Assembly: GCA_964563595.1 (NCBI GenBank)
Contig: CAZLWR010000001.1
Coordinates: 9,857-73,856 of the forward strand
Direction: 5' to 3'
Origin: an uncultured Candidatus Peribacteria bacterium
GTDB taxonomy: Bacteria > Patescibacteriota > Gracilibacteria > Absconditabacterales > Absconditicoccaceae
DNA: 64,000 nt
Positions 8,907 to 47,500 of the stretch are shown one piece after another (the first letter of the stretch is position 1; each line of letters opens with the position of its first letter). A model generated the notes under the pieces. It searched no databases and was not told the DNA's origin. It worked only from the letters and a program-made list of their open reading frames with translations. The position numbers and the translations under genes are program-made.

Positions 8907-8940
8907 TTTCAGATTATATTATATATAACATAAGCAGACG

Positions 8941-15656: not shown

Positions 15657-15937
15657 AGAGCATTAATGATAATAATTAAAGCTAAGACACATCGTGTACG
15701 CTATTAAGAACTATGGTTCATAGATCAAGATAGCACACAGGCTGTCTTGGTGCTATCATTATAATTAAGTATTTTATAATATCAAATAATATTTATTGAC
15801 TTGGAATAACGCAGATATGCTTGAAACCATGAGGGGAAAAATTATGAATTATAACATTTTCGAATTCTTCCCAAATCATATATAACTATATGTATGATAA
15901 TTCTGAAACTATAACATTTATTGTTATGATTGTGTTT

Positions 15938-16011
15938 CGGGAACTAGCTCAGATGGCTAGAGCGCGCGGTTTGGGACCGCGAGGTCGCGAGTTCGAGTCC
16001 CGCGTTCCCGA
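15938..16011 (+). tRNA. tRNA-Pro (anticodon TGG)
   Basis: Cloverleaf drawn by hand: acceptor CGGGAAC/GTTCCCG, anticodon stem CGCGG/CCGCG with loop TTTGGGA, and T-loop TTCGAGT. No CCA is encoded. Confidence 0.85.
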
Positions 16012-16017
16012 AATTAT

Positions 16018-16092
16018 GCCAAGGTAGCTCAGTTGGTAGAGCAGCTCGGCTTGTAGCCGAGTATATCGGTGGTTCGATTCCATCAATTGGTT
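16018..16092 (+). tRNA. atypical tRNA-like gene, anticodon TGT (Thr) if functional
   Basis: The first 27 nt are identical to the neighbouring tRNA-Phe. The anticodon arm is G-CTCGG/CTTGTAG/CCGAG-T (6-bp stem, or a 9-nt loop under standard numbering). The acceptor stem has G1-U72 plus two G-A mismatches at 6-67 and 7-66. Confidence 0.55.
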
Positions 16093-16111
16093 AGATTAGT
16101 TCTTATTTTTT

Positions 16112-16187
16112 GCCAAGGTAGCTCAGTTGGTAGAGCAGAGGCCTGAAAAGCCTTGTGTCGGTGGTTCGATTCCGCTCTTTGGCACCA
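16112..16187 (+). tRNA. tRNA-Phe (anticodon GAA), CCA encoded
   Basis: Acceptor GCCAAGG/CTTTGGC, anticodon loop CTGAAAA, T-loop TTCGATT, and a 3' ACCA. Confidence 0.9.
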
Positions 16188-16225
16188 CTTATTGATAAAT
16201 ACAATTAGATACTTAGATTGACGCA

Positions 16226-16492
16226 ATGGAAAAAATTATTGGATTGTTTGATGAGCTCACAAGAGTTAAAGAGGAAGTCTGACATGGCTTTGAGAAAGAC
16301 TCTAAGGCAGAACAAGTTGCATGGGCGTTGTTATGCGAAGCACAAACACAACATGGTCCATTGAAGATTTGGGCAGATTGTTTTATTGCAGAGAAAGTGT
16401 GGAATCCTACAGTAGTATTGAGTAGAATGGGAGAGGTAATCTTCTCGGTGATCAATCAAAGTGTTGATCCTCAGGATGTATCTATTCAATAA
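16226..16492 (+). CDS. small hypothetical protein (88 aa) embedded in the tRNA cluster
   Basis: ATG to TAA with one in-frame TGA. It fills the gap between tRNA-Phe and tRNA-Ile. The listed antisense ORFs here are shadows. Confidence 0.5.
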
Positions 16493-16510
16493 AGTCAAAA
16501 TACAATATAT

Positions 16511-16587
16511 GGTCATATAGCTCAGTTGGTTAGAGCGCGTCTCTGATAAGGACGAGGTCCATGGTTCAAGTCCATGTATGACCACCA
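16511..16587 (+). tRNA. tRNA-Ile (anticodon GAT), CCA encoded
   Basis: Acceptor GGTCATA/TATGACC, anticodon loop CTGATAA, T-arm CATGG-TTCAAGT-CCATG, and a 3' ACCA. Confidence 0.9.
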
Positions 16588-17065: not shown

Positions 17066-17434
17066 CTATTTTCGGATACGAAACTTTAATGTTCATTGTA
17101 TGCTCATATCCTCATCTTCCAGATTCTCATTATTTCGAGCATGTTCAAATCAAGTTTGTTCAATAATGACTCATTCATAAGTTTGCATTGCCGTGAATAG
17201 TGCATTAGCATAAGCTTTTTGTGCTGTTTTTCAAAATCATGTACTAATTTCTTCCGAGTGGAATCTGACGGGGTTTATTCTGTTGGGGATTATTTCTTCG
17301 CCAGTTGTGGCCCATAGCTTTTGTCCTGGTTTGTCCTCTAGATTATGATAGAGAGCACCTCATTGAAATCCTTGAATACATGCTGTATCTGTTACTTTTG
17401 GAATAATTCATCAAAATCTATCTAGTGAACTCAT
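17066..17434 (-). CDS. hypothetical protein
   Basis: A 123-codon minus frame free of TAA/TAG (checked) with about 10 in-frame TGA. Its stop abuts the stop of the convergent gene. Confidence 0.5.
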
Positions 17435-17601
17435 TTGTTTGTCATATTACAATTTAAATATAAGTGGAGTATTCATTATACAAGTAGTCTATTAAGTCAA
17501 TACTATACATATATAATCAAGAAAGGTAAGATGTGTTCCTATGTGCTTTATCTTGGTAAGAAGATACTTGTTTCACTGTCTTTTTTATATTGAATTTAAT
17601 A

Positions 17602-17629
17602 TTGACAGTTATGTATAAATACTTAGTAT
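17602..17629 (+). promoter_or_regulatory. sigma70-like promoter candidate upstream of the GC-rich thioredoxin-like gene
   Basis: TTGACA (17602..17607), 16-nt spacer, TAGTAT (17624..17629), about 70 nt upstream of ATG 17699. Confidence 0.4.
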
Positions 17630-17698
17630 ACTTTTGTCATCTTTTGACTTGGTACTATGGGTCTTACCAGCCATACAACATGAAAATCTATTGCCTTT

Positions 17699-18256
17699 AT
17701 GAACAAGAAATTATTTTTCGGAACCAGTGCCGTATTGAGTCTTTTAGCAACAGCCATCTTGTCCTTCCAGGTGTACGAACGTACTCATCTGGATGTGCCC
17801 AATCAGCACGTCATGGAGCTGGATGGAATTGAAGCCGTCGAATCAGCGTTTTCCGCCCAGAAGCCGATCTTTCTGAAGTTCGGTGCGGACTTCTGTCCGC
17901 CATGCCGGGCTATGGAGGCTAATATGAAGGCCGTCGCACCCTGGCACTGCGGGGACGTCATCCTCGCTACGGTTGATATCGTCGAACAACCAGAGCTGGC
18001 TTATGTTCTGGCTGACGAAATCGGGCTGGAACTGAATGCCATTCCGAAGCTCGTGGTGCTTTCGCCGGGCCAGGATTCGGCTTATGCCCCTGCGCTCATT
18101 CAAGGCGGCTTTGTTCGTTCGATTCCGGGCCTGGAATGGGAACTGCTGAAACTGGGGCACTTTTCGCCTCTGTATTATCTCTTATCGGCAGTGGTACTGT
18201 TTGGAGTCGGCATCTTCTGCATGTTCCGCTTCAGAAGCCTATCGGTAGTGGCATAG
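17699..18256 (+). CDS. membrane-anchored thioredoxin-like protein (CPPC active site), compositionally foreign
   Basis: This is an intact 185-aa ORF under any code (no TGA, no CGA), with FGADFCPPCRAME and N- and C-terminal hydrophobic segments. GC-rich third positions (ctg, gcc, ggc, ccg) contrast sharply with the flanks. Confidence 0.8.
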   Translation: MNKKLFFGTSAVLSLLATAILSFQVYERTHLDVPNQHVMELDGIEAVESAFSAQKPIFLKFGADFCPPCRAMEANMKAVAPWHCGDVILATVDIVEQPELAYVLADEIGLELNAIPKLVVLSPGQDSAYAPALIQGGFVRSIPGLEWELLKLGHFSPLYYLLSAVVLFGVGIFCMFRFRSLSVVA

Positions 18257-18484
18257 GTGCCGACATCCACATTATTATCAACTTTGTTAAGGTCTTCCTT
18301 TACGAAAAAAAGAGCTATGCTGGTTTACTGGTGTAGCCCTTTTTTAATCTTTTCGTAAGTCTCTTCACCTCTTTGACCAATCCACTACTTTCGCATAATC
18401 AGACTACTCTATATTGACTTATATATTAATATATGTATATAATATCAGATTATTTTCTTAATACTTTTAGACTAAATTAATTTA

Positions 18485-27760: not shown

Positions 27761-27858
27761 GTTAATTCTTTTTGCACTTTGTTTGAACTCGGAAATCGAG
27801 CATATGTTATATAACTAAAATACCGTTTAAGTCAATTATTTTGTCGCTGTGTCACAAG

Positions 27859-29394
27859 ATGAAAAAGAATCAGATTATTCCACATATTCGTATAGAAAAG
27901 ATTTGATATGAGTGAGTATGACTTGCAAGTTTGCCAGATGGAAAAAAGCTAATAGTAAAGTGAGGGGTATTGCCCGGTATGGTTTGTGACCTGAGAGTCG
28001 TGAGGAATCGCAAAGACTATGCCGAATGCCATGTAGTAGATATTGTTTCAGTAGATAAAGAATATGCTACTGGCGAAATTAAATGTCCTCATTACTTGTA
28101 CGCTAAAAATGATATGCCAGTTCACAAGTCTGGTTGTGGTGGCTGTAAGTGGCAAATAGTTGCATATGGACAGCAGCTTACTATCAAACATGATATTGTG
28201 GTGGATAGCTTTCGTCATCTTGGTAAAGCAATTGAAGTGCTACCCGTTCTTGCGAGTCCTGAAATATGGTGATATAGAAATAAGATAGAATACAGTTTTG
28301 GTAAGTTCATTTCATGAAAACTAGAAGATAAGCAGACTCTGAGTGACTGGTCCTTAGGTTTCCATAGGCAGGGCATGTTTGGTAAAATTATTGATATTGA
28401 CCAATGTTTTCTGGTAGATGAAAAAGTGAATAAGATATTCAAATATATCAAAGCACTACTGGAAAAATCTTGACTACCTGTTTATGATCAAATGAGGCAT
28501 GAAGGAGTTCTAAGACATTTGTTGATGAGACAGGCAAAAAGAAATAATCAGATTATGGTAGTTTTATCTGTTAGTGGAGAACTTATATCTCGTGAATGAA
28601 CCAATAATAGCTTAATACGTATGCTGCAAGAAGATAGCTGGTTGAAAGAGCGTATTACTACTTTTGTTTTGATTGTTAATGACAGTTTGGCTGATGTGGT
28701 TGCGACCAGAGATAGTAAGTTTGAGACCTTGTGGGGCGATGGGATTATTAATGAAACGTTGAAGATCAAAGACCAGACATTAAATTTTGATATATCTCCA
28801 TTATCTTTTTTTCAAACGAATAGTACTGGTGCAGAGTTACTCTATAGTACAGCTATCAATATGGTAGGAGATGTTCAATGAACAATATTGGACTTGTATT
28901 GTGGGACGGGCACTATAGGTATTGCCTTTGTAAAAGCTTTACAGGATTCAAAGGGGACTGGTAATGGTGGGGTTTCATTGATTGGAGTAGAAGAGATAGA
29001 ATCTGCTGTAGCGGATGCATATAAAAACGCTGAAGTTAATAGGTTGAAAGTAGACTATCATTTCTTTGCCGGTAAGGTGGAGAAGCTTTTGCAGATGAAA
29101 GACGGTGCTCTAGATATCAAAAGTTGAGATTCTGAACTGGCTATTCCTGCTTCGGATCTAGGTTTGGTTATAGTAGATCCGCCAAGATCTGGTTTGCATG
29201 AAGGGGCTGTGCAAACTCTCATTGAACTCAAAAAACAAACTCCTCATTTGAGAGTATGCTATATTTCTTGTAACCCCGTCACCCTTGCTAGAGACTTAAG
29301 ATTGTTATCTGAGGTGTATACATTTGATACCGTGCAACCGGTTGATATGTTTCCTCATACCTATCATATTGAGAATATTGTAGTGTTGAGATAA
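27859..29394 (+). CDS. 23S rRNA (uracil-5-)-methyltransferase RlmD/RumA family
   Basis: It has a TRAM-like N-terminus, a Cys cluster (CPHY..CGGCKWQ), SAM motif LDLYCGTGTIG, IVDPPRSG, and a catalytic YISCNP. 512 codons in one frame. Confidence 0.85.
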
Positions 29395-29416
29395 AGTAGT
29401 TTAAGTTTTAAGAATG

Positions 29417-29442
29417 ATCCTCGTCGCGTGACCGCAACGAGG
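29417..29442 (+). terminator. GC-rich hairpin downstream of rlmD-like gene
   Basis: TCCTCGTCGCG-TGAC-CGCAACGAGGA forms a stem of about 10 bp with one mismatch, followed by a T-rich tract. Confidence 0.5.
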
Positions 29443-29575
29443 ACCGTGGAACAGTGTTTGTTTTGTTTGTCCCGTAATTCTATTAATTACTTTTCCGTAT
29501 ATGTCAATGTATTGTATCAAGCTATACAACTTCAAAGTTTCTTGATAATATCTGATAAAAAGCTATGTACTGGAT

Positions 29576-30094
29576 ATGATGACTTTGGGAAATCGTAATA
29601 TCTATCATATCCTATCAATTATTAAGCTCATTATAGGCTTGTTAGTTTTGGTGATTGTTTATATCTATATAGATCCTTTTCAAGATCCTGAGACGGGCGT
29701 AATCATAGGTTCGATAGGATTACTCTTTTTGGCTCGAGGTGGAACGTATTTTATATTTTATGCTGCAGGTTTGCAATGGAGTGACCATAAGGTTCAGCTT
29801 ATATCAAGTCATGCTTATAAACTTTCTCTTTTGGTAGCTTTATTTTTTCTTACTAATATTGTATTTTTGGTTGTAGAGTTCTGGACAGTAACTCATAGTC
29901 TGATTATTCTTCTTATTTTCTGAAGTGTTTATCGGCTTATTTTCCACAAGCCTTTACCGGAGCATCATACGAGTATTGATATGGTTATAAGCTGAAAGCA
30001 AAAAGCGAAAAGCAAAAGGCTTGATTCTGATGATTCTCAATGAGATAAAGATAGTCTGAAGGATGAGGATTGAATTGAAACTGAAACTGAATAA
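29576..30094 (+). CDS. hypothetical membrane protein with acidic/basic tail
   Basis: Four hydrophobic segments, then (through 4 TGA) KQKAKSKRLDSDDSQ..DEDGIETETE. Confidence 0.6.
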
Positions 30095-30111
30095 ACTATA
30101 AGAAAATCCAT

Positions 30112-30183
30112 GGTTCCATCGTTCAATGGATAGGACATGCCCCTGCGAAGGGCATAATGCAGGTTCGATTCCCGCTGGGACCA
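30112..30183 (+). tRNA. tRNA-Arg (anticodon GCG)
   Basis: Acceptor GGTTCCA/TGGGACC, D-arm GTTC-AATGGATA-GGAC (A20 present), anticodon stem TGCCC/GGGCA with loop CTGCGAA, 4-nt variable region, and T-loop TTCGATT. The minus-strand ORF 29954..30184 is its shadow. Confidence 0.8.
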
Positions 30184-30233
30184 TTTTGCTACTACATTAA
30201 CATTCCAATATATAGCTTTATTATCGTCTCAGT

Positions 30234-30800
30234 ATGAGAATTCTACTTATTGATAATCACAGTAAACATAGTGAAGCATTGAAATTATTGCTTGCTCAAT
30301 ATGGATGAGTAACTGCTATAGACAAAGATAATCTGAATGCTTTCCCAGCTTTATGATATGATCTGGTCGTTCTTTCTTGAGGCCATGACTGTAGTGTTAT
30401 AGGTCATGAAGCATATTATGAACAAGAGTTACATTTCATTACAACAGCAAAGATTCCTGTTATTGGTATTTGTTTAGGGGCACAACTTATTGCTCATGCT
30501 TTTGCTGCTACACTTAAAAAACTACCAAAAAAATTAGAACTCTCTTTAAAACTTGATTCTTGTAGTGATCATTTCCAATTTTCTAGTAAAGACACTGTGG
30601 TTGCGGAGAGACATTGGTGGTGTGTTACGCAGCTTGGAACAGAATTAGAGTGATTAGCAAAGTCCCCCTATGGTTATGAAATATTTAAACATAAAAAAAG
30701 ACCTATCTATGGATTACAATTTCATCCTGAGATAGATACTTTGCATTTGGGTGGTGATGAGCTATTAGACCTAATAATTAGAAATGGTCTAGATAGATAA
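30234..30800 (+). CDS. class I glutamine amidotransferase-like protein
   Basis: MRILLIDNH.., nucleophile elbow IPVIGICLGAQLIA, and YGLQFHPE. Confidence 0.75.
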
Positions 30801-31134
30801 ACATTCTATGTTCATAAGAACTTCAACTTAAAGTTGGTAGTCTATCGTATGTTCAGATTTTCCCTACGCCCTCCGCTCATAATATTCAATTTTGAGCGCC
30901 ACCTATTGTCCTGTTTCATACTACAACTCCTATTGGCACCTTAGGTCCATTTCGTTCCAATAGATAGACTCCTCAATGGAGATGTTTATTAATATAGTCA
31001 AGTACTCTATCTTTTTCTCCAAGTCACAACGTTGCATCGAGTATAGTTGCTATCTCTAATCAATGTTTTCATGGAGAAAACTCTGTCGCATTGTGTGCGA
31101 CGATCTCAGTGATTTTTATGTTATCTGGATTCAT
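30778..31134 (-). CDS. hypothetical Gly-rich protein (118 aa)
   Basis: A 119-codon minus frame free of TAA/TAG (checked) with about 12 TGA (Gly) codons. Its 3' end overlaps the convergent GATase gene by 23 nt. Confidence 0.5.
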
Positions 31135-31262
31135 GTTTTTATTTACTTCGGTAAATTGATTGTTTTAGTATAAGTATATAGCATATAATGTCAATACTAT
31201 GATTATTATTAATCTATTATTTTGTCGTGGATTTTTCAGAGAATATACTTATTATCAAGCTT

Positions 31263-32270
31263 ATGAATGCATACAGAACCCTAGCTATAGAAACGAGTTG
31301 CGATGATACCTCTTTGGGTATTATTACTTTTGATAACGGAGTATTTTCTTGTGAACTGTTAAAAACCCATAGTCAAATAGCTGATCATCAACAATACGGC
31401 GGCGTGGTACCAGAGTTGGCTTATAGATTACATGAAGAAGAGATATTAAAAATAGTCAGAGAAATTGGATATGATCAGATTTGAACATGTGATTGTATTA
31501 CTGTTACTAAAGAGCCCGGTTTGCCTGGATCACTGGTCGTTGGTAATGCTGTGGCAAGTATGTTGTCTACATTTTTGCATAAGCCTATTCAGAGAGTCAA
31601 CCATATTTATGGACATATATTTTCGTTATTGCTTGATAGAACCATAGAGGAACTTGTTTTTCCTTGGTTGATACTTACTGCGAGTGGTGGCCATAACGAA
31701 CTTTATATTGTTGAACAAGTGGAAGCTAAAAAACAAAACCTAAAGATAACAAAACTTGGATATTCTCTAGATGATGCGGCAGGTGAATCTTTTGATAAGG
31801 TCGCAAGAATGCTTGGGGGAACCTATCCTGGCGGTCCTCGGATCGATCGTATGGCTGAAAAGTCAAAAGGGAACAAGGATTTTCATTTTAAAAGAATTAT
31901 GTTAGATGAAAACAATATGTTAAACTTTTCTTTTTCAGGAATGAAATCACAAGCATATCAATTACTCCAAAAGCGTCCTTTGGAAACGCTCTCCGAACAA
32001 GATAAAGCAGATATATGCTGGGAGTTTCAAGAATGTGTGACGGATATATTGGTCAATAAATTGCAGTGGGCTGCGGTACGTTATAATGCAAAAACGATTT
32101 GATTGGTTGGAGGCGTCAGTGCGAACGATAGATTGTTTGAAAAAGCTCAAATAATTGCTACTAAAATACCTCAAGCACAAATCCTTAGACCAACAAAAAA
32201 AGTCTATAGTACCGACAATGCAGCTATGATAGGAGTTGTAGGTATATTACAATCTTTATGATACTTTTAA
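31263..32270 (+). CDS. tsaD: tRNA N6-adenosine threonylcarbamoyltransferase
   Basis: Motifs seen: LAIETSCDDTS, YGGVVPELA.R.H, VNHI.GH, TASGGHNEL, DDAAGESFDKVARMLG..YPGGP, and LVGGVSAN. I preferred ATG 31263 over the listed GTG 31227. Confidence 0.9.
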
Positions 32271-32831
32271 ATGAACAGAGAACTGATCAGCGAGATAGTG
32301 ACTATGCTAGAGTCATGAAAGTTAATTCTTTATCCTACCGATACGGTATGGTGAATTTGAGGAGATGCGACAAATGAGTCGGTGATACAATCGATTATGA
32401 CATTGAAAGGGAATAGAGAAAATAAACTATGATTTGTGATGCTGATTCATCCTCAGCATATCTGAAATTATGTTGACTGCGATATAGAAGAGATCACCAA
32501 AAAGATAGATGAGATTTGATGACCCGTTACTTTCAGATTTACAGATCCCAAGGGGATCCCCCAGTCAATGTTGTTGCAATCTGAAAATACTGTGGCAATG
32601 AGGATTCCTTTTACTTGCAAGTATTTGATGGATATGCTAGAGGTATTTTGAAAACCTATCATATCTACTTCTGCAAATATCACTAATCATCCGTATCCCT
32701 TAGTTTTTGAAGATATTGTTGAGGAAATAAAAAATGGAGTGCAGTATATTGTTCCGCCAGAATTAGACCAAGGAACAAAAAAACCAAGTACGATTGTATG
32801 ATATGGAGATAATATACTCTTTAGATCCTAA
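32271..32831 (+). CDS. tsaC: L-threonylcarbamoyladenylate synthase (YrdC/TsaC type)
   Basis: LILYPTDTVW-G-I-G-GDATNESVIQSIMTLKGNRENK and STSANITN. It starts on the base after the tsaD stop. Confidence 0.8.
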
Positions 32832-32921
32832 AGTCTGTATATAGCATCTTTATGACACATACACTATGGGCCAATACAACCCATCCCTCAGTATCAAATC
32901 TTTATAATCTGCCTAGCCTTT

Positions 32922-33620
32922 ATGACACCCAAAGATCAGTTTATAATTTATACTCAAAAACTCTTAGGAGAAAAAAAGGTATCAAATACTGCTTTATTAG
33001 TAGAGGCATTTACTCATAAGTCCTTTTCTACGGAATCCAGCAAGCCCTTGGCTCATAATCAAAGACTAGAGTTTCTTGGAGACAGTGTCTTAGGAAACAT
33101 CGTTGCTGCTCAATTGTATCAAGATCATCCTGATTTTGACGAAGCTCAGTTAACCTTGTGGAAAATATCATTGGTCAGAGAGGAAAATCTTTATGAAGTG
33201 GCCAAAGAAATCGGACTTGATAAAGTAATACTGATAGGAAGATGAGAGGAGAAAAAAAACGGAAGAGATAATCCAGCAATATTAGGGGACTGCTTAGAGG
33301 CATTGATTGGGTATATCTATCTAGATATGGGGTTTGAAATAGTAACAAAGTTTGTTCTCGACTATATTTATGTAAAAGCACAAACGATTGCTTTGGTAGG
33401 TTCTAAGAGCTGGAAATCGTTGCTGCAAGAGAAATTGCAAGCACAGTTCAAACAGCTACCAGTGTATATCAATGAAGAGATAGAAAGAGATGATAAACTG
33501 AATTATATTAAGTACAAGAGCACAGTGGTGTTGGGACAGAAAATGTTGTGAGTGGGTTATGGTTTGAGCAAAAAGAAGGCAGAGGAAGATGCAGCAAAAA
33601 ATATTGTGGATAAATTGTAG
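32922..33620 (+). CDS. rnc: ribonuclease III
   Basis: It carries the signature NQRLEFLGDSVLG, ..LGDCLEALIGYIYLD, and a C-terminal dsRBD ending G-YGLSKKKAEEDAAKNIVDKL. Confidence 0.9.
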
Positions 33621-33633
33621 ATGTTATTTGTAT

Positions 33634-34632
33634 ATGAACATTAAGATGAATGTAGAGGCCTTGGCAGATCAGATTATTTCCATTTATAAGACTTGAACTA
33701 TTCCTCTTATTTACTGACAAACAGCAACTGGGAAAACGAGGTTGAGTTTAGAATTAGCAAAAAGATTCCCCATTGAAGTTATATCGGCTGATAGTAGGCA
33801 GATCTATAGGTATATGGATATTGGTACAGATAAAGTGAGCCAAGTTATCAGATCTCAGATTATACACCATCAGATTGATATTGTTGATCCCGATCAAATC
33901 TATACTGCGGGACAACGACAAGTAGATACCTACAAGATTATTGAAGAAGTTTTTAAGCGTTGAAAGATTCCAGTGATTGTAGGAGGTACTGGTCTGTATA
34001 TTGATACCGTGGTATATAATTTCACCATGGGCATAGTAGAACCGAATCCTGTTTTAAGAAAAGAGCTGGAAGAAAAGGAAACAAGAAAACCTGGTATACT
34101 TTGGGATACGCTGCATACCATAGACCCTGTGGAAGCAGCAAAACATCACCCCAGTAGTATAAGATTTATCATCAGGGCACTAGAGATCTACTACCAAACC
34201 TGAGCCCTCAAATCCGATATTATGAAGAGGCAAAAGCCAAATTACCCCCTCTTGATGGTTGGTTTGCGACAAGATGTGAAGATGGGTAATAAGCTGATAG
34301 ATGAAAGATTAGAGCTGATGATTCAAGATGGATTGATTCAGGAGGTTCAAGATTTGTTGGATAAATGATATGATCCAAAATCCAATGCTTTGCAAAGTAT
34401 AGATTATAAACAAACAATAGACTACTTAGAAAAGTTAAAAATTGAACAGCCTTCAGCCTTCAGCCTTTTGCATTCGGCCTATATGGCATCATTACAGATA
34501 GCCAATCATCAATTAGCTAAAAAGCAAAGGACCCGATTTCGTAGATACAGTAGGGATAATGAATATCATAATGGCCGAGATGATCAAAATAATATAAGAT
34601 ATCTGGACTTATATTTACCTGATTATATATAG
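33634..34632 (+). CDS. miaA: tRNA dimethylallyltransferase
   Basis: P-loop G-QTATGKT, ISADSRQIYRYMDIGTDK, VGGTGLY, and LAKKQRT-W-FRRY with Trp=CGA (34534..34536). Confidence 0.9.
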
Positions 34633-34744
34633 TAACTATTTGTCAATCTGGAGATAGTATCTTTGTGTGCGTAAGCCTTGAATTTCACTGGTAGATGTAT
34701 TTAATCACCATCAAATCTCTATTTATTTATTATCGATTATTGGT

Positions 34745-35644
34745 ATGACTGCAAATTCACAAAAGAATGCAAACTTTTGGGACACAAACTCGCACTTGAT
34801 TACTAGTGTAGCAAGCGTCCTTACTTTGCTTCTCGTTGTCTTCAATACATTCGGCGGTGCTGGTGTTAAGAGAGCAATTGAAGAAGTAGAGGCTATGAAA
34901 GTTGGTGGCCAAGAGAACTATGAAATTGTTAAGAAGATTTACGCAAGTGACGCTTTCAAGGCATCTCAGAAGAGTTCTTTGGAGTCTGCTCAACAACAAA
35001 TGGCTTGAGCTGCTGCTGAAACTACGCCTACTGATACAACGGCTACTACGCCTGATGCAGAAGCAACTGCTGACGCAAAAAAAACTATTACTAAAGAACA
35101 ATTAGAAGCTATCAAGAAAACTGGTCAATGGGATGGTGCTAAAAATGGTAAAGTTATTTTACTTGAGTATAGCGACTTACAATGTCCATTCTGTAAGAGA
35201 CATCATGACAACGGTACTATCAAATCATTATTAGCAAAATATGATGGTAAGATTAGTCACTCTTTCAGACATTTCCCATTATCATTCCACCAATTTGCTG
35301 CACCAGGTGCTAACGCTGTTTTGTGTGCTGCTGATCAAGGAGGAACTGATGTTTACTACAAGTTTATTGAAGGTGTATTCGCTAAATCACTTAGCTCTGA
35401 ACAAATATTGTTTGATGTAGCTAAGGAATTGAAGCTTGATGAAGCTAAATTCAAAGACTGTATGGATAAAAAACCATTTGCTGCTACTGTTACTGCCGAA
35501 ATGAACGAGGGTCAAAGCTTGTTTGGTGTAACTGGTACTCCAGGAAATGTAATGATCAACACAGAAACTCTTGAATGGGTTGCTGTAGCTGGTGCATATC
35601 CTGCTAGTGAGTTTGAAAAAACTTTGGATCTATGGACTAAGTAA
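34745..35644 (+). CDS. DsbA-family thiol:disulfide oxidoreductase (membrane-anchored, exported)
   Basis: It has an N-terminal TM, a Thr/Ala-rich linker, then LLEYSDLQCPFCKRHH (CxxC) and ..GTPGNVMIN. Confidence 0.8.
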
Positions 35645-35671
35645 ACAAACAAATAATTGTTTAAGAAATGG

Positions 35672-35702
35672 CCTGCTTGCATTCTTGTAAAGCGGGTTTT
35701 TT
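35672..35702 (+). terminator. rho-independent terminator
   Basis: CCTGCTT..AAGCGGG stem (one G-U pair) followed by TTTTTT. Confidence 0.6.
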
Positions 35703-35788
35703 CTAGATTGATTTGAATATAAGGATTATTAAATTAAGATTCTAGCCACTACTATTACATTACCCATTTTTCATTATTAATTATTCTC

Positions 35789-36322
35789 ATGAGTAGAGAG
35801 CAAATTGGACAATTTCTGAATGATATCACGCTTATGACCGATACAGAGCAACAAGATGGTGATGTGGTGAGACTTATGACCATACATGCTAGTAAATGAC
35901 TAGAGTTTGAATACGTTTTTGTGGTTGGTTGTGAAGAAGGTAATTTTCCTGGTAATAATTCTGTTCTTGATCTTGATGAATTGGAGGAAGAAAGAAGGCT
36001 AATGTATGTGGCCATAACCAGAGCAAAAGATCATCTTTTCTTGAGTCATGTAGACTCTCGTATGATATGGTGAAAGACTGTTTCAAGCAAAGTTTCAAGA
36101 TTTATAGAGGAATTGCCTACTGATTTACTGAAATCTTATGATCTAGGATCTACGGGTTCCAAAAAAAGAAGTGTGGACCTTGATGCGGGTGATAGAGTAA
36201 GAAATAAGTTGTTTTGACCTGGTACGGTGAGAGAGATCTGGTGAGATGTGGCCATTGTTATCTTTGATAAACCAAGTGTAGGTCTTAGAAAACTGGATAA
36301 AAGAATGGTAGTAAAGATGTAA
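35789..36322 (+). CDS. UvrD/PcrA-type helicase C-terminal fragment only (177 aa)
   Basis: [28 protein letters not shown] and [21 protein letters not shown] are helicase motifs V/VI. An in-frame TAA at 35735..35737 precludes any upstream helicase core. Confidence 0.7.
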
Positions 36323-36354
36323 TAATCTGATTATATTTTATACAAACAAATTAT

Positions 36355-37338
36355 ATGAAAACTATACTAACTGGCTTACAAGCTACATCGGATCAAATTC
36401 ATATTGGTAATTATTTTGGGGCGGTAAAGCCCCTTATGCAAGATATCAATAACCCTGAATTTCATTTTTCAATTATGGTAGCCGATCTCCATAGCATTAC
36501 TAAAGTACTTAATATCAAAGATAATTATCCATATAATTCTTGGACATACAATGCTATCAAAATTTACATTGCTTCCGGGGTTGATATTGAGAAAACTGTT
36601 TTATTTAAACAATCTGACGTACCAGCACATTGTCAGCTTGAGTGGATATTGGCATGTATCACACATCTAGGTTTTATGCAACGTATGCATGCCTATAAAG
36701 ATGCTGAGAATAAATGAGAACTCAACCTTATGAGTATGGGAAGCGTTTGTTATCCAATTTTAATGGCAACAGATATATTACTATACGATGCAGATATTGT
36801 ACCGGTGTGAAAAGATCAGCAGCAGCATGTAGAGTACTGTGTCGATATCGCACAAAAGTTTAATCATCGCTATGGTCCGGTATTTAAGGTGCCTAAACGA
36901 CAAATTTCAGAAGAAGTAGGTGAAGTGCCTGGTCTTGATGGTCGTAAGATGTCCAAGTCTTACAATAATTATCTAGGTATGCTGGATAGTCCAGAAGTTT
37001 TAAGAAAAAAAGTAAATAAAATCATGACTAGCGATTTGTTGCCTGATGATGCAAAAGATCCTGATACCTGCAATGTTTACCAGATTATTAAACTGTTTCT
37101 CAATGAAGATGAACAAAATAACCTGAGACAAAAGTACCAAGCCGGAGGGATGAGCTATAAGTACGTTAAAGATTACCTTTATGAAAAACTTATTCTCTTT
37201 TTGGAGCCAATCCAAACAAAATTTGCTTGAATAAGTGATGAATATGTACAGAATCTTTTAGCAAAGAATGCAATTATCGCTAATGAAGTGGCGAATAAGA
37301 AAATTGATCAAGTCTACAAAGCAATAGGCTTCAGATAA
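36355..37338 (+). CDS. trpS: tryptophanyl-tRNA synthetase
   Basis: Motifs seen: TGLQATSDQIHIGNYFGA (HIGN), G-KDQQQH, and GRKMSKS (KMSKS). Confidence 0.9.
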
Positions 37339-37362
37339 TATTTATGTTTTATTACGATTATT

Positions 37363-37671
37363 ATGACTTTAAATCCAATAAAGAAGATTACGTACTATAC
37401 TCCGAGAGAGCATAATGATCCCATAGGTACTTCTTGAATCTTGCAGAAGTTAGGGAAAGAATTGTGACTACTCTTTGGAAAAGAAGATAGGATTGATGTG
37501 GTAAATTGCACCGATGCTAAACTTGTTGTAGAGTTCAAAGGTTGAAGAAAATTTAGTTATAATCTGAGAGAAGAGTATAACTTAAAACATGAATTGATTG
37601 ATCATGTCTTATTGTGAACTGATGACCCAAATCTACAGGCTGAATTGGCTTTGTGAAAGTATGGCCTATAA
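37363..37671 (+). CDS. small hypothetical protein (102 aa)
   Basis: ATG to TAA with 5 in-frame TGA, followed directly by a terminator. Confidence 0.45.
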
Positions 37672-37685
37672 AACTTGTTTATAGT

Positions 37686-37711
37686 AAAAGCCTCGTTTAT
37701 CGAGGCTTTTT
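37686..37711. terminator. bidirectional rho-independent terminator
   Basis: AAAA-GCCTCG-TTTAT-CGAGGC-TTTTT lies between convergent stops at 37671 (+) and 37729 (-). Confidence 0.8.
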
Positions 37712-37728
37712 AATATATTTTTTCTGTT

Positions 37729-40700
37729 CTACTTCTTGATACTAAAGTTAATAATGCCTTCTTCTACGTCGCATTCTCCAGTATAATCTGGATTCTCAAT
37801 TGATCATGCGATGGTACCAAGTGTTTCTCTGGCGATGTAATCTCCATATTGAGATAAAATACTTTCAGCTTCAAAGCCAGATATAGTTAAACTAATTCTG
37901 TCGGAAACATCATAGCCAGTATTTTTTCTGGCTTCTTGGATGGATCTGATAAGTTCTCTTACGTATCCTTCCAGTTTTAACTCTGGTGTTATAGTTGTAT
38001 CTAGCATAAGAACTAGATTTCAAGAAGTTATAATATCTCCCGTAAGATCTCCTTTTTCGTATCTCATTTCGTATTCATCTGGCTGGAGTATAATGTCTGA
38101 CACTTTGACTGTATTGTCTGACAAAAGTTCAAACTCCCCGGATTTTGCAAGAGTATTTATTTCTGCAAATCTTGAGCCGAGCTTCTTACCTAACAACTTT
38201 GCATTTGGTATACAGATTCTATTTATTTGATTATCTAGTTTTGCATCTACGATGAGCTCTTTAACGTTTAACTCTTCCAAAATAGTAGTTTCGTATTTTG
38301 GATTGATTTGCTTATTAATTCTGAGTGATTGAAGGGGTTGCTTTACTTTGATTTTAAGCGAACCTCTCAGTGAAAGACCAAGCTCCACAATTGTTTTAGT
38401 TAAATCCATATCTTGTAGTAATGTAGTATCAACCAATGTGTTAATCTTACTCGAGTCAGTTCGATAATCCAAATGTACCGACTCTTTGTTTGTAAGATTT
38501 CTATAGATATACTCTGACAAGAAAGGCATAAAAGGTGCCAGTACTTTGCATAATTCTATAAGAACTACATATAATACATCATAACCAGACATCTTATCAC
38601 TATCATTTTCAGATTTCCAAAATCTGCGTCTATTGCGGCGTATATACCAATTAGTGAGATCATCCATAAAACTAAATAATGGGGCGGTTGCTTTTTGAAT
38701 ATTATAGGCTTCCATTTGTTTATTTACTTCCGTGATGAGTTCTGCTGTTTTTCAGATTATTCGTTTATCAAGATCGTTTTTAAATTCATAACCTACGAAA
38801 TCACTAATACTGTGCTTAGTTGGAGCGAACTTGTCTATATTTGCATAGGTAGTGAAAAATGAGAAGCTATTCCACAAAGGAAGATTCACTTTTCTGATTA
38901 TTTCTTTTCGTCCTTCTTCATAAAAATTCATATCACCTCAAACGAGTATAGGACTAGATGCAAAGTACATCCTGAGGGAGTCAGAACCATGTGTCTTCAT
39001 ACTTTCTTCCGGATCTGGATAGTTACCATAGGATTTGGACATTTTACGACCATCATTTCCTGCGAGCACACCCGTACAAACAACATTGGTAAAAGCAGGG
39101 TTATCAAAGAGCATGACTCACAATGCATGCATAAAGAAAAATCGACATCTCACTTGACCTAGATACTCTGCAACATAATCTGCAGGAAAGGATTGTTCAA
39201 ACTTTTCTTTATTTTCAAATGGATAATGTACTTGAGCATAAGGCATAGATCCGGATTCGAGCCATGGATCCAATACTTGCGTTATTCTCGTAAACTTTTC
39301 ACCTTCACGTATTCACCAAATTGCATCAATATAAGGACGATGAAGATCAAATTCTTTATTCTCTAAAGTATTTCGGTATTTCTCTTTTCAATTTAAAACT
39401 CTCTTTTCGAGTATTTTACTTCCTGTTTGATCCAATGCAAATATATCCTCTCTGCTGCCGCATACTATTATTTTCCCGCTTTCTGCTACCCAAACTGGCA
39501 TTGGAGTTGCCCAATATCTAGTACGACTAATACATCGGTCAGGAGCAGATTCCATGGATTTTAAAAATCTACCATGCTTGAGATGCTCTGGTACTCGATT
39601 TACTTTTTCATTTTCAGCGAACAATCTTTCTTTGATTGATTTGATGTCAATAAACCAGTTGTCTTGCGTTTTGTAGATTAATGGTACTCCTGTTCTTGGG
39701 CACATAGCAACCGAGTGAGTAATAGACTCTTTCTTGAAAAGTAATCACTTCTCTTTGAGTTTGTCCATCACAAGATCATTCGCATCGCGGTAGTATACTC
39801 CTTTCATATCTGCTATTTCCTCGGTATAGTTCCCTTGTTCGTCCAGGGCAGCAGATTGAGTTAAGTCATGTCTTTTTCCTGTTTGAAAGTCATCTTCTCC
39901 AAATTCAGGGGAGGTATGTACGATACCTGTTCCATCGCTGTCAGTCACATAATCAGCAAGGTATACTTTGTGATCATTAGTGCTTTGTCAGACATAGTAA
40001 TCAAATGGTGCTTGATAACTTAATCACTGAAGTTCGGCCCCTTTAGATGTATATATAATCACATATTGAGAAGGATCTTTATAAAACTTAGAAATAAGGT
40101 TTTCTGCTAGTATGAAATACTCCTGTAAGACTAGATCAAATAGCTGTAGGTATACTATATCTTTGTTCACTACGAGTGCCATATTTGCTGGTATAGTTCG
40201 TGGTGTCGTAGTTCGTGCTAAGAAGGAAAATGGGTACTTATCTCAATTACCTTGCAACGCTCAATGTTCTACTATTTGTTTGTAGTGGTAAAGATCTTTG
40301 AAGGTTCTTATCTCTTCTTCACTATCTATGATAGCATTATTTATGGTGAAATTTCGTCATAATTCGTTTTCACTTGTTCATATATATGTATACCCATATG
40401 CAGTATGCTTATCTGACTCTAATAACTGAATCTCTCAATGTATTATCTCCGCTTCATAAAACTCTAGATATGCTTTGTGTGAATTTCTAATATCTTTGTG
40501 GGCACACACTCTTTTTCAAACCTTTACGCTCACTCATAATTCTTCCTGTAACTCTCTTTCTAGGGCTTGAGTCGCAGTTTCTCATAAATCTACTTTACCG
40601 CCGGGAAACTGCCAATTTCCATGTTTTTGATTATAGACCGATAGTATTCCACCTTTACTATCTTTGATTATAGCCTGTGCATAGCATATAAATCCGTCTT

Positions 40701-41394
40701 GCGTGGCTTCATATTGATTTCAATCTGCTAAGGCAATGTCTTTTCAGATTAGTGGAAATTTCACAGTGATAGCCGGATCAGCAATATCTGCATAACTATT
40801 ATCCAATGCTACTTCATAGTTACTAATTGGCGTATTGAGTTTGGTAGAGTATAATGATACTCTCTTGCCTTCATAAATCATACCCTTATCTCGTAGAGAC
40901 TTGAATACTCGCATAACAGATTCCATGTAATCATTGTCCATGGTTTTGTAGGCGTTTTTGAAGTCCACCCATCTTCCGATATGATCTACATATCGCTCCC
41001 ATTGGTCACTGACATTTTTGGTGTAATCATAACATGCTTCAATAAACTCTTTAATACCATGTGCTTCAATTTCTTTGTTAGACTTATAGCCGAGTTTATC
41101 CTGTATTTTTTGTTCTACATAAATTCCATGGCAATCCCATCCTCGTACTCTTTCTATTCTTTTCCCTTTTTGCGTCCAGAATCTTGTTACGATATCCTTT
41201 ACTACGCTGCTCAATAGGCTTCCATAATGTGGTAAACCAGTAATGAATGGTGGTCCATCGTAAAATCTATAGGCATTCTCTTCGGATCTTGTTTCAATAG
41301 ACTTTTCGAAAATTTGATTATCTTTCCAATATTGTAAGATTTCTTCTTCTAACTGGAAGAAATTTGGAGAACTAGGAAGTTTTGGGAAAGACAT
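37729..41394 (-). CDS. ileS: isoleucyl-tRNA synthetase (type 2 / eukaryote-like) carrying an internal Nudix-domain insertion
   Basis: 1,221 aa in one frame. Motifs seen: [37 protein letters not shown] (Trp=CGA at 40213..40215 and 40198..40200), [17 protein letters not shown] (CGA 39535..39537), and GRKMSKS. Confidence 0.92.
40260..40735 (-). other. Nudix hydrolase domain inserted in IleRS between the ..ITVKFPLI.. strand and WTTTPWT
   Basis: The canonical Nudix box GX5EX7REUXEEXGU is read in frame: G-KVDL(G)[15 protein letters not shown](G)V at complement(40531..40599). It is preceded by [31 protein letters not shown]. Confidence 0.8.
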
Positions 41395-41579
41395 CGCGAA
41401 TGGACCTAACAGAGTAAAATGTAAAATTTATATAATAATATTGAAATGTATTACAACGCTTTGTAAAGTAAAATTCACTTAACTACTGCTTTCTAGTTGA
41501 TAAAACTGCACAAAAGGGTAAAAGAAAACGAATAAAAACTTGCTTTTGGATTTCATTAATTCCTACTTGTTATACTCTG

Positions 41580-44500
41580 ATGTTTCAACGAAGTAAAAAA
41601 AAGATTATACTCTTTATAGTACTTATTGTTTTCAGTGTTGATACAGTACTATCTGGTACTATTTTTTGATGGAATAAAGCACGAGCAGCAGAAACAAACT
41701 TTACTGATATTATCAGCGTTTTCATTGATAAAAATATTGCTGCCAGTGCAGGAAGTGACCTTGATTGGTTTACGAAACAGTATTTGTGAAGAAATTACGA
41801 CAATGCTCAGGTAATGGTATTTCAAATTGACCCATCGGGAGTCTCTCCAGCGGATATGGCTAAGATCAATCAAAATCTCTATTTGGAATGAAAAAAATGA
41901 GTTCCTAGTAGGTTGATCGGGACCGTTCTTATTGGTGATTTGAAATTACCGGTGGTCAATAAAGACTGATTTGTTTTTTCAACTATCTATCCGTTAGTAG
42001 ACTTTGAAAAACCTAAATATTATTACGATAAGAATTCAGATTATTTTCTTTATCAGTCCGAAGGCAATAGCCAACCTGAAATACGGCATAGTGTGATTAA
42101 CTTTGCGAATGATACGAGTAAGTACAAAATATATCTAGATAAACTGAAACAGTACGCTGCGGATCCGCAGTCGTGGGTGAAACAAGGTGTATGGTATGAT
42201 GATATCATCCATCAAAAACAAACTCTCAACGCTGATAATATTTCTAAATACGTTAACAATGCTGTGTTTAGCGAAGACGTAATGTACAATAGATATACCA
42301 ACTTGATGGTTGATATCTTCCAGGCCTTGCACAATAGTGGAGTAGTAGATACTTTGGGTGACTATGATGATCAGGTTATTAATAATTTGGAAGATCCTTA
42401 TTACAATGATCCAGAATTTCAGGAAGTGAAAGATCAATATAAAGGTCAGATAGAAAAGTTTTGGAATTTGATAAAATCACTAAAATCATTGGTAGGTTCG
42501 AATAATACCGACTCTTCAGATCCAGAGCCTTCAAATTCTGCCTTGGGCACATTGCCCAATAGTAAGTTTATCAATACCTTATTTATTCAAAAGGTGGTTG
42601 ACGGATTTATGAAAGATTATGTAGAGTTGTATGGGACCCTCTATTTTGATACCAAAGAGAAAAGGTTGCAGCTTGGTGGAAGATATGTTGCTGGACAAAC
42701 AGGTACTGCAGTAGATGATCATATTACGATGACTAGTAGATGGGATGAAGTCAGTAAGCAATTGTTAGCTGATGCGAATACGAAGCTGGAAAAAGCACTT
42801 GATGATAAAATTGAGCAGGAGGGATATAGTATGAATGTCTTGGTTCCGACTAGAGTGGATATCAACGGTTGTAACAATGTAGAAACAAAAGACTATGATG
42901 CGAAGAAATCGTATGAGGTGTACTATTTTGGTAGGCCGGCTGAGGAAATTGATAACGCTGAGGATTTTGGTATTTACCGTGGTACCTTCAATAATATTAG
43001 ATCACTTGTAAAGCTTGATGGTTTCGACTATACCAGTTGGATGGATGCCCAAGAGAATCAATCAATTGGTGCAACCAGGGGAGAGAATGCAAGGGAAGTG
43101 GAAGCACATAGAGGCTATGATTTCTCATTGATAGAATACGATCAACAGGAATTTGAAAGGGTAAAGAGTATTATGCCTTTTAGTAAACATAAGAAAAAAA
43201 GAAAAAACATTGATAAGTTTATCAACTATTACCGAGCAGGATATACGCCACTCAATATTGACCCTAACAGTGAAGATGTGAGACTGAACCAAACAAGAAT
43301 GGACTATACACAGTTGTGGAATCCTTGGAAGAATAGAACATTGGGCGGACCTGTATTTGATATAGCTTGAAGTAGAATCACTACTCCTGATAGGAAAATT
43401 AATTTCAGTTATGGATCGGATGATGATGAAGACGAAGATGATGGAGATGAGGATACGCCGGATATTGTTACTAAGTCTTATTCAGGTTATTCTGATAGTT
43501 ATTTAGGAGCAGACTTTTTTGGAACTACCTTGCAGGTTGCCAGAAATAATGGTAAGTGGATAAAAGTTCAGAAAAGAAAAGTAAGAAAAAATGGTAAGCC
43601 TAAGAAAAATCGAGAGGATGTTAGACTATTTGCTTTGGGTGGATTATCTAGCAATGATGGTTTATTCCTCAAAAATCCTAATGATGACGGCTATATTACG
43701 ATAAATAGTTGTGCGAGCAATAACCGAAATCGTTATTTTAATTCAGTTGATAGTAGATATTTCCATAAATCACCGACTTTAGATGAGCTCTACGGTAAGT
43801 TCACCAATCTCAATAAGGTTAAAATGGATATCAGCTTCGGCTGTGACTCTCCTGATAATGGCAATTATGCTGAGGGTCAGCAGTGCCAAGGAATAGAGTT
43901 TAGACGAAGTGATTTCTTACCGGGCTTTAATGATAATTCCGCCTCTCCCTGGTATTTATCTAAGGATGATTATTTTATAACCTGAGGCAAGATTTATTTC
44001 AATAGCACTGCGAAGTTTTACTTTGCTGGTCAAGATATTGATTTGAGTAACGTAATAGGTGAACTTACTGGTGGAAAAATAAAATTTCAATATGATGGTA
44101 GAAATATAGCACTAACGTATGCGAATGCTACTTTTGATTGCGAAGAGCTGGAGACCGACGTAGAAGAAGGTCTTGCTTGTGTGGGTTTGAGTTTCGAGAT
44201 AGATCATAGGAAGCACTTTATAGATTATAAATACTTTGACTATGATACTACTGGTCAGGTTATTTCATTTTATCCCTGAGCAAAAATTACTGTCATGAGC
44301 AAGGATTATCCCTTGTGAGGCATGGTGGTCCAAGTCAATGGTGATAAGTGAGAGTTCTCTGGCAAACAACTTCAAATAGGTGGTATGAATGAATTCACCC
44401 TCGAGAGACCGGTTGATTCTCCTAGGTATGTCAATTTCCAGGGAATAGGAGGGGATAAGTTGACTTGGGTCTATCCGAATATGTGGAAAGTGGCGGTCTA

Positions 44501-47500
44501 TAAAGAAGTAGATGGTAAAAGAGTACTTAAAACCATAGAGGAGATACAGGATGCTTTAAAACAATATCTGCGTGATAAAGTAAAAGATTACAATAATCAG
44601 CTTCAAGACCAAAGAAATAAGAGATTTGATTACTATAATGGTAACGAGTGAGGAGCTGCAAGAAGAAACCGAATTGATAAATTTGATAATTATGATACGA
44701 GTATTTCGCCTTTAGTGCATGAAGATAATACACAGCTTAATCTGAGATCTTACAAGTTGTTACCTGAAAATTTCTTGATTGATGGCTTGGCGACGACACG
44801 AGAAGGAGAAGCAATCAGCAGCAACGATATGCTTAAGGTTATTGCTCAGCAGCTCTATCATCAAAATGTGATGCGGTTGCAACTGCCAATTGACACCAGT
44901 AAAAAAGTCTTGGATGAAGTGAGTTTGATCCAATCGTTTGCCGATATTAATCATAAATCCAGGGAACTTTATTCCGAATACTTAACTGAGCAACCAAAAG
45001 ATGCTTTTGAGAATGTTCGTGCATATGATTTAGATTTACCTTATTATAATCTTAGTGGTTACGAAGCTGGATATATCAATAGTGATGGAGCGGACTATGT
45101 GCAGTTTCAAACAGTACCGCCACTAGTGAAGCTTATCCAAAAACAAAAAGCAAAAGATACTCCTCCAAAACCAAAGACGGCTGAAGATCTAGACACCAGC
45201 AGATGTGCGAATCTTATACCTGCAAGTTATGTGGTGTCCCTATCAAAACGACCTGCGGCATTTAAGTGCTGGCTTTCTGATATCACTTCTTCAAAACTTT
45301 TTGATGTAAAGATTTCTTTTGCTGGCTCTGCAAATGGTGTCTTTTGATTGGGTAGTGATGAAAACAGTTCTGGACGACTGGAAGATGCTTGGCAGCAAGG
45401 TACTGATCAGTTTAAAACCGAGCGGAAAAACTATTCTCAAGGACGAAGGGCTACGGTGAAATGAGAAGATACGGGTATCGCTCCTGATGAAAGAAGAGAA
45501 TTGGCGAAACAATTAGATAATCTGATCATCAAACCTACTAGTTTTTCTCCTGCTTTGACTGCGTGAGTGAGACTAGCGATTTCCACCAAAGAGGATTTGT
45601 GATCTTATACTATTCAGATTTCTAGTACGGGTGCCAACTGTTTGAAATATGTAAATGGGTCTAACTTGTGCCAATCACCGCAATCTTTACAAATAGCATG
45701 ACTGTATTCCAGCAATTATGATTTTACTTTCACAAAGTTGTTTGAAGGGGTTGGCGATATGAATATCCAAGTTAAAATTTGTAAATCTAAATGTGTTTAT
45801 AAAAACATAGTAATTGCTGTCCAGCCATCTGAAATTAGTAAATTAAAGTTTGTACACCCTATGGGTGATCAGATCTATCCGGTGGCGAGAGGTGTGCAAC
45901 TGCCTATGATGACCAATGCTTTTGATGCATATGGTAATAGCATTGGAACTACCTTATATGATTTTATTGTAAAGACTTCTCATAAAGGGTGACTCATCTA
46001 TGATAATGAACTTACTCAACAATTTCAAATCAGTTCATTCACCGATGCAGGGTTTCTACTAGATACGATTTCTGTGAATGGAAATAAAGAGACAATAACT
46101 ATTGCTCCAAATCCTTCTTTTGTCGCTCTCAATCCTTCATTACCAAAACAAGAACTTACGTTAGATATCGTGGATCCGAATGTGAGTATCATTACTAGTT
46201 CTACCGTAGTTCAGTTACCAGAAAGTAGTAGCGATTTAGAAAAGACAAGTGATGGCGTCTCTTACACAGATATTTCTAAACTGACTAAGATAAGAGTGGT
46301 AGTTAATAATGGTCAAAAGTTATATGCTGTTGTCTCAGCAAAGTCTCTATGAGGTAAGTTTATTGCTGGTATCAAAGGTACAAAAAAAATAGCTAAACCG
46401 AACAATCAATATGCTACTGTGGAGACATTCATTCCCGTAGAGGAGGTGCTTTCTACTGGAGGTTTTGTAGAGTTTTATCTATATCCCACTATGAAAGCAG
46501 GAGAAGATAGCCTCCAGATTCAAGTTGGTCAATCAAGTAAAAATATTACCCTTGAGGTAAAACCGGCAAGTCCCAAAAAGACCAGCATCAATATTGATAC
46601 GGATGTAATGGATTTGCAATGAAAGGTTGATGGTACTATAGCAGTCACTGATATCTGGTGAAATATATTACCAACTTCTGTGAATGTATTATTATGAGCA
46701 TATGGCAATATTACTGTTGACGGAGTAAATGGTTCTGGCAGTGTTATTGCTATTGCTTGAGAAAAGCAAATTACTGTTCGCCCGGTATATCCCTGAGGAC
46801 AGGGTTACTTATTTGTTACTATACAATGAGTCCCATTTGATCAACAATTTCCTGATTATCGTAGTATACTTGTGCAAAATAGAGCACGACCTATAGAAGA
46901 TATAAATGTAGCTTACCTCAATCTTTACGGCTCAGATCGAGCGAACCAAGTTGATAAGCAAACAAATAAGATAATCTGACCAGCAGTTCTTACGGACAGT
47001 AATAAAACTTTATCGCTTACTACTCAGTATGGAGATCCATCTCAAATCTACAAAACATTGTTCGCAGTAGATAAGAAATGACAGATCAAACAATGATGAA
47101 CAGAGAGTATTGAACTCGCTTTGTCTAATGAACAACTTGGATATCATACTGAACAGTATGGGTTCTTACCTATCGGTCAAGCCAGTAGTTTTGGTATGCA
47201 AGTAGTTTCAAGTTTGGATGGAGGGCTTGCCGGAAATGCTTGGGCTGTTAAGGTTTGAGAAATCAGTTCTACCATACAATCAATTGTGGTTGTAGGCAAG
47301 CAGTTGCGTGTCAATGATCAGATTATTATAGATTTGCAAAATGCTGTATGGGATACCAAGGTAAGTATAAAGTATGCAGGAAATATAGGAAACTATACCA
47401 AGCGAAATATATATTATGGTAATGACATTGTTGCTCAGTTTATTCAAACATATGCTTTGGATACTACCTATACTGATATGCGAAGATCTCTTGTGGATCC

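Follow-up and report, generated by a model that had tools for sequence, protein, structure and literature searches.

The gene at nt 30112–30183 (+ strand) of the window, the whole 64-kb stretch of DNA analyzed here, is best read as a functional, single-copy tRNA-Arg(GCG) of Absconditabacterales that decodes exactly the CGN codons still meaning Arg, with a G34 inherited from the CPR ancestor; we put the probability of this reading at about 0.9. The code of the window is UGA for Gly, CGA and CGG for Trp, and CGU, CGC, AGA and AGG for Arg. G34 is mechanistically compatible with, and needed for, the division of the box into CGY for Arg and CGR for Trp, and is not diagnostic of it. The anticodon GCG is the inherited, phylum-wide state of the CPR, a permissive precondition and not a consequence of the reassignment. 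[quoted passage not shown] The present case matters little beyond confirmation; it offers a single-gene view in which the decoding range of the sole CGN-box Arg tRNA seen equals the Arg part of the box in an SR1 bacterium.

The gene is 72 nt long without an encoded CCA, and was identified by both Rfam (RF00005) and ARAGORN. The Rfam match is full-length (1–71 of 71) with a score of 55.9 bits (E=2.3e-9 in the 64-kb window); the earlier note had named a covariance-model score as its check for a pseudogene, and this score is well over the gathering score of 29. ARAGORN spans nt 30111–30184, where the extra base at each end makes an eighth T-A pair. These 74-nt boundaries were dropped in favor of the 72-nt Rfam span, which is right because all the distinct homologues among the matches listed (67 of 67) end in A73. 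These 67 CPR tRNA-Arg(GCG) are all 72 nt in length and carry A20, A73 and the Arg identity elements. As read from the sequence, the acceptor stem is GGTTCCA/TGGGACC (7 bp), the D arm is GTTC-AATGGATA-GGAC with G18 G19 A20 U20a A21, and the anticodon arm is TGCCC-CTGCGAA-GGGCA. The variable region has 4 nt, and the T arm GCAGG-TTCGATT-CCCGC contains a single mismatch, A51·C63 (+ strand, nt 30161–30173, with A at 30161 and C at 30173).

The anticodon G34 C35 G36 lies at nt 30145–30147 (+) inside the loop CTGCGAA (nt 30143–30149), as given by both the sequence and ARAGORN. In the D loop (AAUGG-A20-U20a-A21), with the numbering anchored on G18 G19 at nt 30128–30129, the base at nt 30130 (+) is A20, the main identity element for ArgRS, a role on which PMC8629427 also relies. 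With C35 (nt 30146), G36 (nt 30147) and the discriminator A73 (nt 30183, +), the Arg identity set of the window tRNA is complete. A34, the substrate of TadA, is absent from this tRNA, nt 30145 being G. Sequence, ARAGORN and Rfam confirm the earlier note on the coordinates, A20, the anticodon loop sequence CTGCGAA and the good quality of the cloverleaf. Its observation of one tRNA-Arg, with G34, is borne out as well, since tRNA-Arg(gcg) is the sole tRNA-Arg among the five tRNA genes found by ARAGORN within the 64-kb window.

The cloverleaf is maintained among relatives. In an alignment of 51 distinct CPR homologues of tRNA-Arg(GCG), taken from the matches listed, pairing is found in 98.9% of cells, compared with 40–50% for the control in which the 3′ partners were slid, and 16 of the 21 pairs have changes on both sides. 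The invariance of the D arm is forced by the search pattern and has no evidential weight; T33, G34, C35, G36, A37 and A38 are similarly invariant by construction of that pattern. Orthologs in three further lineages (L003/L088, L084 and L136) occupy the same neighborhood, with the shared gene order TrmA-like methyltransferase, tRNA-Arg, TsaD, RNase III, MiaA, DsbA-like, TrpRS, IleRS and giant ORF. The flanks in these lineages are approximately 65–75% identical to the window, and the tRNA is identical at up to 70 of 72 positions. The closest ortholog, that of L084, differs from the window tRNA at 2 of 72 positions, where the two substitutions compensate each other (U27-A43 to C27-G43); in the tRNAs of L003 and L136, additional compensatory substitutions affect the acceptor, anticodon and T stems. 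The A51·C63 mismatch is common to the window and L084, while L003/L088 and L136 possess a standard 51:63 pair, and the mismatch is therefore lineage-specific and evidently tolerated.

The surroundings of the tRNA-Arg form a conserved block (nt 27766–41394) rich in tRNA and translation genes, containing a TrmA/RlmD-like U5-methyltransferase, the tRNA-Arg, a class-I GATase, TsaD, TsaC/Sua5, RNase III, MiaA, a DsbA-like protein, a UvrD C-terminal fragment, TrpRS and IleRS. The IleRS (nt 37729–41394, − strand) has a NUDIX domain inserted at about aa 240–370, and its homologues in Absconditabacteria/Gracilibacteria carry NUDIX, histidine-phosphatase (PF00300), GNAT or PF06821 in the same protein; since the extra domains differ, accessory fusions or insertions vary within the IleRS of this clade. 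The best IleRS relatives, up to 67% identical, are metagenomic proteins, and the named ones are labeled Absconditabacteria, SR1 or Gracilibacteria. Divergent from the adjoining IleRS is a giant ORF (nt 41472–54569, + strand; 4366 aa under code 25) with syntenic giant ORFs of 4302 aa in L002, 4264 aa in L003 and at least 3576 aa in L136; no Pfam hit is on record for them. Elsewhere in the window, a tRNA cluster (nt 15937–16587, + strand) contains Pro(tgg), Thr(tgt), Phe(gaa) and Ile(gat), of which Thr scores only 41.3 bits. An ORF at nt 8929–9492 (+ strand) is LepA/EF4-like and just 188 aa long, corresponding to the GTPase N-terminus, with an unrelated ORF directly after it; this is perhaps a gene that has been truncated or frameshifted.

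The window has a GC content of 36%, and treating TGA as sense raises its ORF coverage from 37 kb to 96 kb over the 64 kb. The code was tested on the IleRS gene, which has 14 CGA, 14 TGG, 20 TGA, 4 CGT and 4 CGC codons, in an alignment of 121 sequences (the window IleRS and 120 homologues). Ten of the 14 CGA codons are located in near-invariant Trp columns, and the other four in variable columns. Summed over the CGA columns, W occurs 1030 times and R 198 times, and the TGG columns hold the same mixture of W and R. The R in the CGA and TGG columns presumably stems from the relatives' own CGA and CGG codons under standard translation. The columns of AGA, AGG, CGT and CGC are Arg. At the codon level, the Trp columns of the window gene and five Absconditabacterales IleRS orthologs, that of SR1 Aalborg_AAW-1 among them, show free exchange of TGG, CGA and CGG.

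The same assignment emerges from a codon matrix built on all ORFs common to the window and eleven Absconditabacterales loci. The CGA codons of the window (n=130) are matched in the orthologs by TGG 58 times, CGA 39, CGG 9, CGT 1 and AGA 0, and the CGG codons (n=23) by TGG 14 times and CGA 7. CGT and CGC are matched by CGY and AGR only, never by CGR or TGG, and TGA (n=276) by TGA 84 times and by GGN 110 times. In alignments with PDB sequences, the CGA/CGG positions of SHMT and GlyRS face F, Y, L or W and never R, although several of the CGA positions are in variable columns, which makes the PDB alignments less informative. The IleRS columns, the codon swaps between orthologs and the PDB homologues therefore give UGA as Gly and CGA/CGG as Trp, with the other Arg codons unchanged. 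Rough counts over stop-to-stop ORFs are CGT 72, CGC 26, CGA 88, CGG 24, AGA 376, AGG 98 and TGG 160. The genes of the window thus need UGA as Gly and CGA/CGG as Trp for their translation, and the standard tables, table 25 included, misplace Arg at approximately 110 Trp positions in 64 kb.

The distribution of the GCG anticodon was surveyed over one genome per GTDB species with a pattern of the D arm and anticodon loop that leaves position 34 free (GTTCAATGGATAGGAC-N7-T-N-CGAA). This survey is biased towards the D-arm sequence of the window, and its 120 loci are an arbitrary sample. Among the matches listed, position 34 is G in at least 72, C in at least 41, T in at least 7 and A in none; ARAGORN on all the loci among the matches listed gives at least 85 Arg gcg, at least 45 ccg and at least 9 tcg, with 0 acg. 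Nearly all the matches listed are Patescibacteria/CPR from many classes, with Saccharibacteria, Parcubacteria/Paceibacterota, Magasanikbacteria, Taylor-, Lloyd-, Kaiser-, Vogel- and Nomurabacteria, Peribacteria and Minisyncoccia represented. Six of the loci among the matches listed are labeled Absconditabacteria/SR1, and G34 is present in all six. In the 59 non-Absconditabacterial loci with this tRNA among the matches listed, CGA is used at approximately 88 per 10,000 codons and lies opposite R in 51% and K in 18%, exactly like CGT, CGC and AGA; its top partners there do not include W, whereas TGG lies opposite W in 75%. Because the subject residues in this comparison were translated with the standard code, it has a slight circularity. 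As the G34 tRNA and CGA for Arg coexist outside Absconditabacterales, GCG is older than the reassignment.

The earlier note held the anticodon to be unusual, and as expected if CGA had to be freed from Arg decoding. The same 72-nt tRNA-Arg(GCG) frame is widespread in CPR/Patescibacteria, which contradicts the former claim, and the latter fails because G34 was already present and CGA faces Arg or Lys in the 59 non-Absconditabacterial loci listed. Alternatively, GCG could be a derived state, in which A34 was changed to G34, or the ICG tRNA was replaced, under selection to release CGA, and the anticodon would then be independent evidence for CGA as Trp. The decoding range of G34 does equal the split box found in the window, and replacement of A34 by G34 is known in some Mycoplasmas. 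Nevertheless, many CPR lineages share this tRNA frame with G34, and CGA reads Arg beside this tRNA outside Absconditabacterales. In the part of the Figure 4 source data of PMC8629427 that covers Absconditabacterales, BD1-5, Peregrinibacteria and Peribacteria, tRNA(ACG) is 0 across the genomes shown and tRNA(GCG) is 1 in most, including Peregrinibacteria, Peribacteria and Gracilibacteria outgroups where CGA is Arg at up to approximately 257 per 10,000 codons. The published data, like those obtained here, place G34 before the reassignment. The Mycoplasma precedent also points the other way, since these Mycoplasmas exchanged ACG for GCG plus UCG after the loss of tadA and kept all CGN as Arg (Yokobori et al. 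2013, PMC3711424). A derived origin is thus largely refuted already, and we regard it as improbable. The claim that the tRNA is an independent observation fitting CGA as Trp stands for the fit, the decoding range being that of the split box, and falls for the independence, as G34 coexists with CGA as Arg. G34 is no marker of CGA reassignment because the whole CPR inherits this anticodon.

Two further explanations concern the tRNA gene itself and the completeness of the reassignment. The gene might be a decaying, non-functional pseudogene, and a different tRNA, encoded elsewhere in the genome, would then read CGU and CGC. The T-stem A51·C63 mismatch would suit such decay, as would the lack of a conspicuous sigma-70-like promoter or terminator beside the tRNA-Arg; a promoter and terminator scan around the gene gave nothing above shuffles. 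However, its score far exceeds the gathering score with every Arg identity element intact, its only differences from the L084 ortholog (2 of 72) form a compensatory pair, and the syntenic place is kept across four lineages despite flanks that are now approximately 70% identical. CGT and CGC are moreover regularly used, the window having 98 such codons, and need a reader. A pseudogene is the least probable of the alternatives considered, and we give it hardly any weight. It is also conceivable that CGA is ambiguous, with Arg still inserted at part of the CGA/CGG codons either by this tRNA or by an Arg tRNA(UCG) that escaped detection, so that the reassignment would be incomplete. The four IleRS CGA codons in variable columns leave room for this, and the view is limited to 64 kb of the genome. 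On the other hand, CGA and CGG make up approximately 41% of the Trp-type codons of the window by the rough ORF counts and stand in invariant Trp columns of essential enzymes. Opposite AGA or AGG in orthologs the window CGA is never found, and opposite CGT only once in 130. G·A wobble is, to our knowledge, not an accepted decoding mode. Ambiguous decoding is accordingly considered very unlikely, only slightly less so than a pseudogene.

A functional tRNA-Arg(GCG) with an inherited G34 would operate as follows. The CPR common ancestor would have been without the inosine system of tRNA-Arg(ACG) and TadA, and the inheritance of G34 from it would have made a clean CGY/CGR split possible. ArgRS presumably recognizes the tRNA through A20, C35, G36 and A73 and would charge it with Arg. 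The unmodifiable G34 would pair only with CGC by Watson-Crick pairing and with CGU by G·U wobble. Since we know of no accepted G·A pairing at the wobble position, the wobble rules predict that tRNA-Arg(GCG) leaves CGA and CGG alone. With CGA and CGG captured by Trp and UGA by Gly, the range of this tRNA would coincide with the remaining Arg codons of the CGN box, and AGA and AGG would be read by other tRNAs encoded outside the window. The CGR pair is normally read jointly by a U34 tRNA. Because there is no inosine-34 tRNA, CGA is untied from CGU and CGC, and CGR could change its meaning as a unit. The proposal of the earlier note that G34 restricts the tRNA to CGU and CGC agrees with the wobble rules, whereas its description of CGA/CGG as unassigned to Arg hinges on the genome having no tRNA-Arg(UCG/CCG). 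An additional tRNA-Arg(ACG) or tRNA-Arg(UCG), which the note named as its refutation, is unlikely in this genome given the literature on the clade. The genome is predicted to lack tadA. A deaminase motif of the cytidine/adenosine type ([HC]AE...PCxxC) was found in no frame of the window, a result that bears on these 64 kb only.

This arrangement can be compared with those of other bacteria. Most bacteria use tRNA-Arg(ICG), which TadA makes from ACG, for CGU, CGC and CGA, and tRNA-Arg(CCG) for CGG (PMC3711424). The window tRNA shares with the E. coli-type tRNA-Arg(ACG→ICG) A20, U20a, C35, G36, A73, the loop CU-N-CGAA in all but position 34, and the reading of CGU and CGC. It differs in a D loop shorter by 1 nt, in a variable region of 4 nt, and in having G34 for A34, and is therefore no substrate of TadA and forms no inosine; by the wobble rules it should be unable to read CGA. 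The Mollicutes of the Mycoplasma pneumoniae group, which lost tadA (PMC3711424), likewise serve the CGN box without inosine through a G34/U34 two-tRNA strategy. However, all four of their CGN codons are Arg and their change from A34 to G34 is recent, whereas the lineage of the window has an ancient, phylum-wide G34 and a changed meaning of CGR. Arg CGN codons have also been captured in low-GC genomes of Firmicutes, with CGG turned to Trp or Gln (Anaerococcus, RFN20 Bacilli, Peptacetobacter). These Firmicutes retain tRNA-Arg(ACG/ICG); therefore CGA is still Arg in them and only CGG can be reassigned.

The window matches the Absconditabacteria of PMC8629427 in UGA as Gly, CGA/CGG as Trp, the absence of tRNA-Arg(ACG), GCG for CGU and CGC, low GC, and a predominance of AGA among the Arg codons. 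In contrast, its lineage has no close representative in the protein collection searched (the nearest IleRS being 67% identical), and its CGA usage, roughly estimated from ORFs at approximately 46 per 10,000 codons, reaches or exceeds the upper end of the published values. Another difference is that the partner tRNA(UCG) and tRNA(CCG) of that paper, given in the part of its Figure 4 source data on Absconditabacterales as one of each per genome, are not found in the 64-kb window.

In line with the published table, a Trp-type tRNA(UCG/CCG), which should have G73 and no A20, is expected elsewhere in the genome. A TrpRS gene (class I W/Y synthetase; Pfam PF00579, E=4.4e-52) is located at nt 36355–37338 (+ strand), 6 kb downstream of tRNA-Arg(GCG), and its product would charge whatever tRNA reads CGA and CGG. 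No tRNA reading CGA or CGG is present among the five ARAGORN tRNAs of the 64-kb window. In metagenome contigs, a canonical tRNA-Trp frame with a YCG anticodon had 0 matches, and an Arg-type D arm without A20 combined with a YCG anticodon had 6 matches, none of them a tRNA. The IleRS neighborhoods of nine relatives (loci L002–L008 and L135–L138) contain no tRNA with a UCG, CCG or CCA anticodon, and include two more syntenic tRNA-Arg(GCG), in L003 and L136. It is about an even chance, in our judgment, that the CPR-wide lack of an inosine-34 Arg tRNA is the historical precondition that allowed CGA to be captured only there and CGG alone elsewhere, with the window representing a poorly sampled branch in which the capture is far advanced. 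If this is true, the genome of the window is a good place to look for the Trp-charging tRNA(UCG/CCG) and a matching change in the adjacent TrpRS.

Several minor observations were made in related sequences. At nt 4518–4600 of L132 (JACCDN011164861.1) lies a sequence that resembles an Arg-type tRNA(CCG) lacking A20, in its 5′ half only, GTCGTTCAATGGTAGGAC...CTTCCGAA. The anticodon loop is followed immediately by non-tRNA sequence, and no tRNA is called by ARAGORN at this position; this half-tRNA could be an intron-containing or a disrupted tRNA. In two genomes of Paceibacterota/Nomurabacteria, ARAGORN reported a well-formed tRNA-Stop with a UUA anticodon close to tRNA-Arg(GCG), at nt 770–843 (− strand) of L119 and nt 948–1021 (+ strand) of L127, which may be a UAA-reading, suppressor-like tRNA. 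Lastly, nt 17120–18423 of the window are 100% identical to a 1.3-kb Logan contig of run SRR8893623; this read set therefore contains the organism and can be used for reassembly of its genome.
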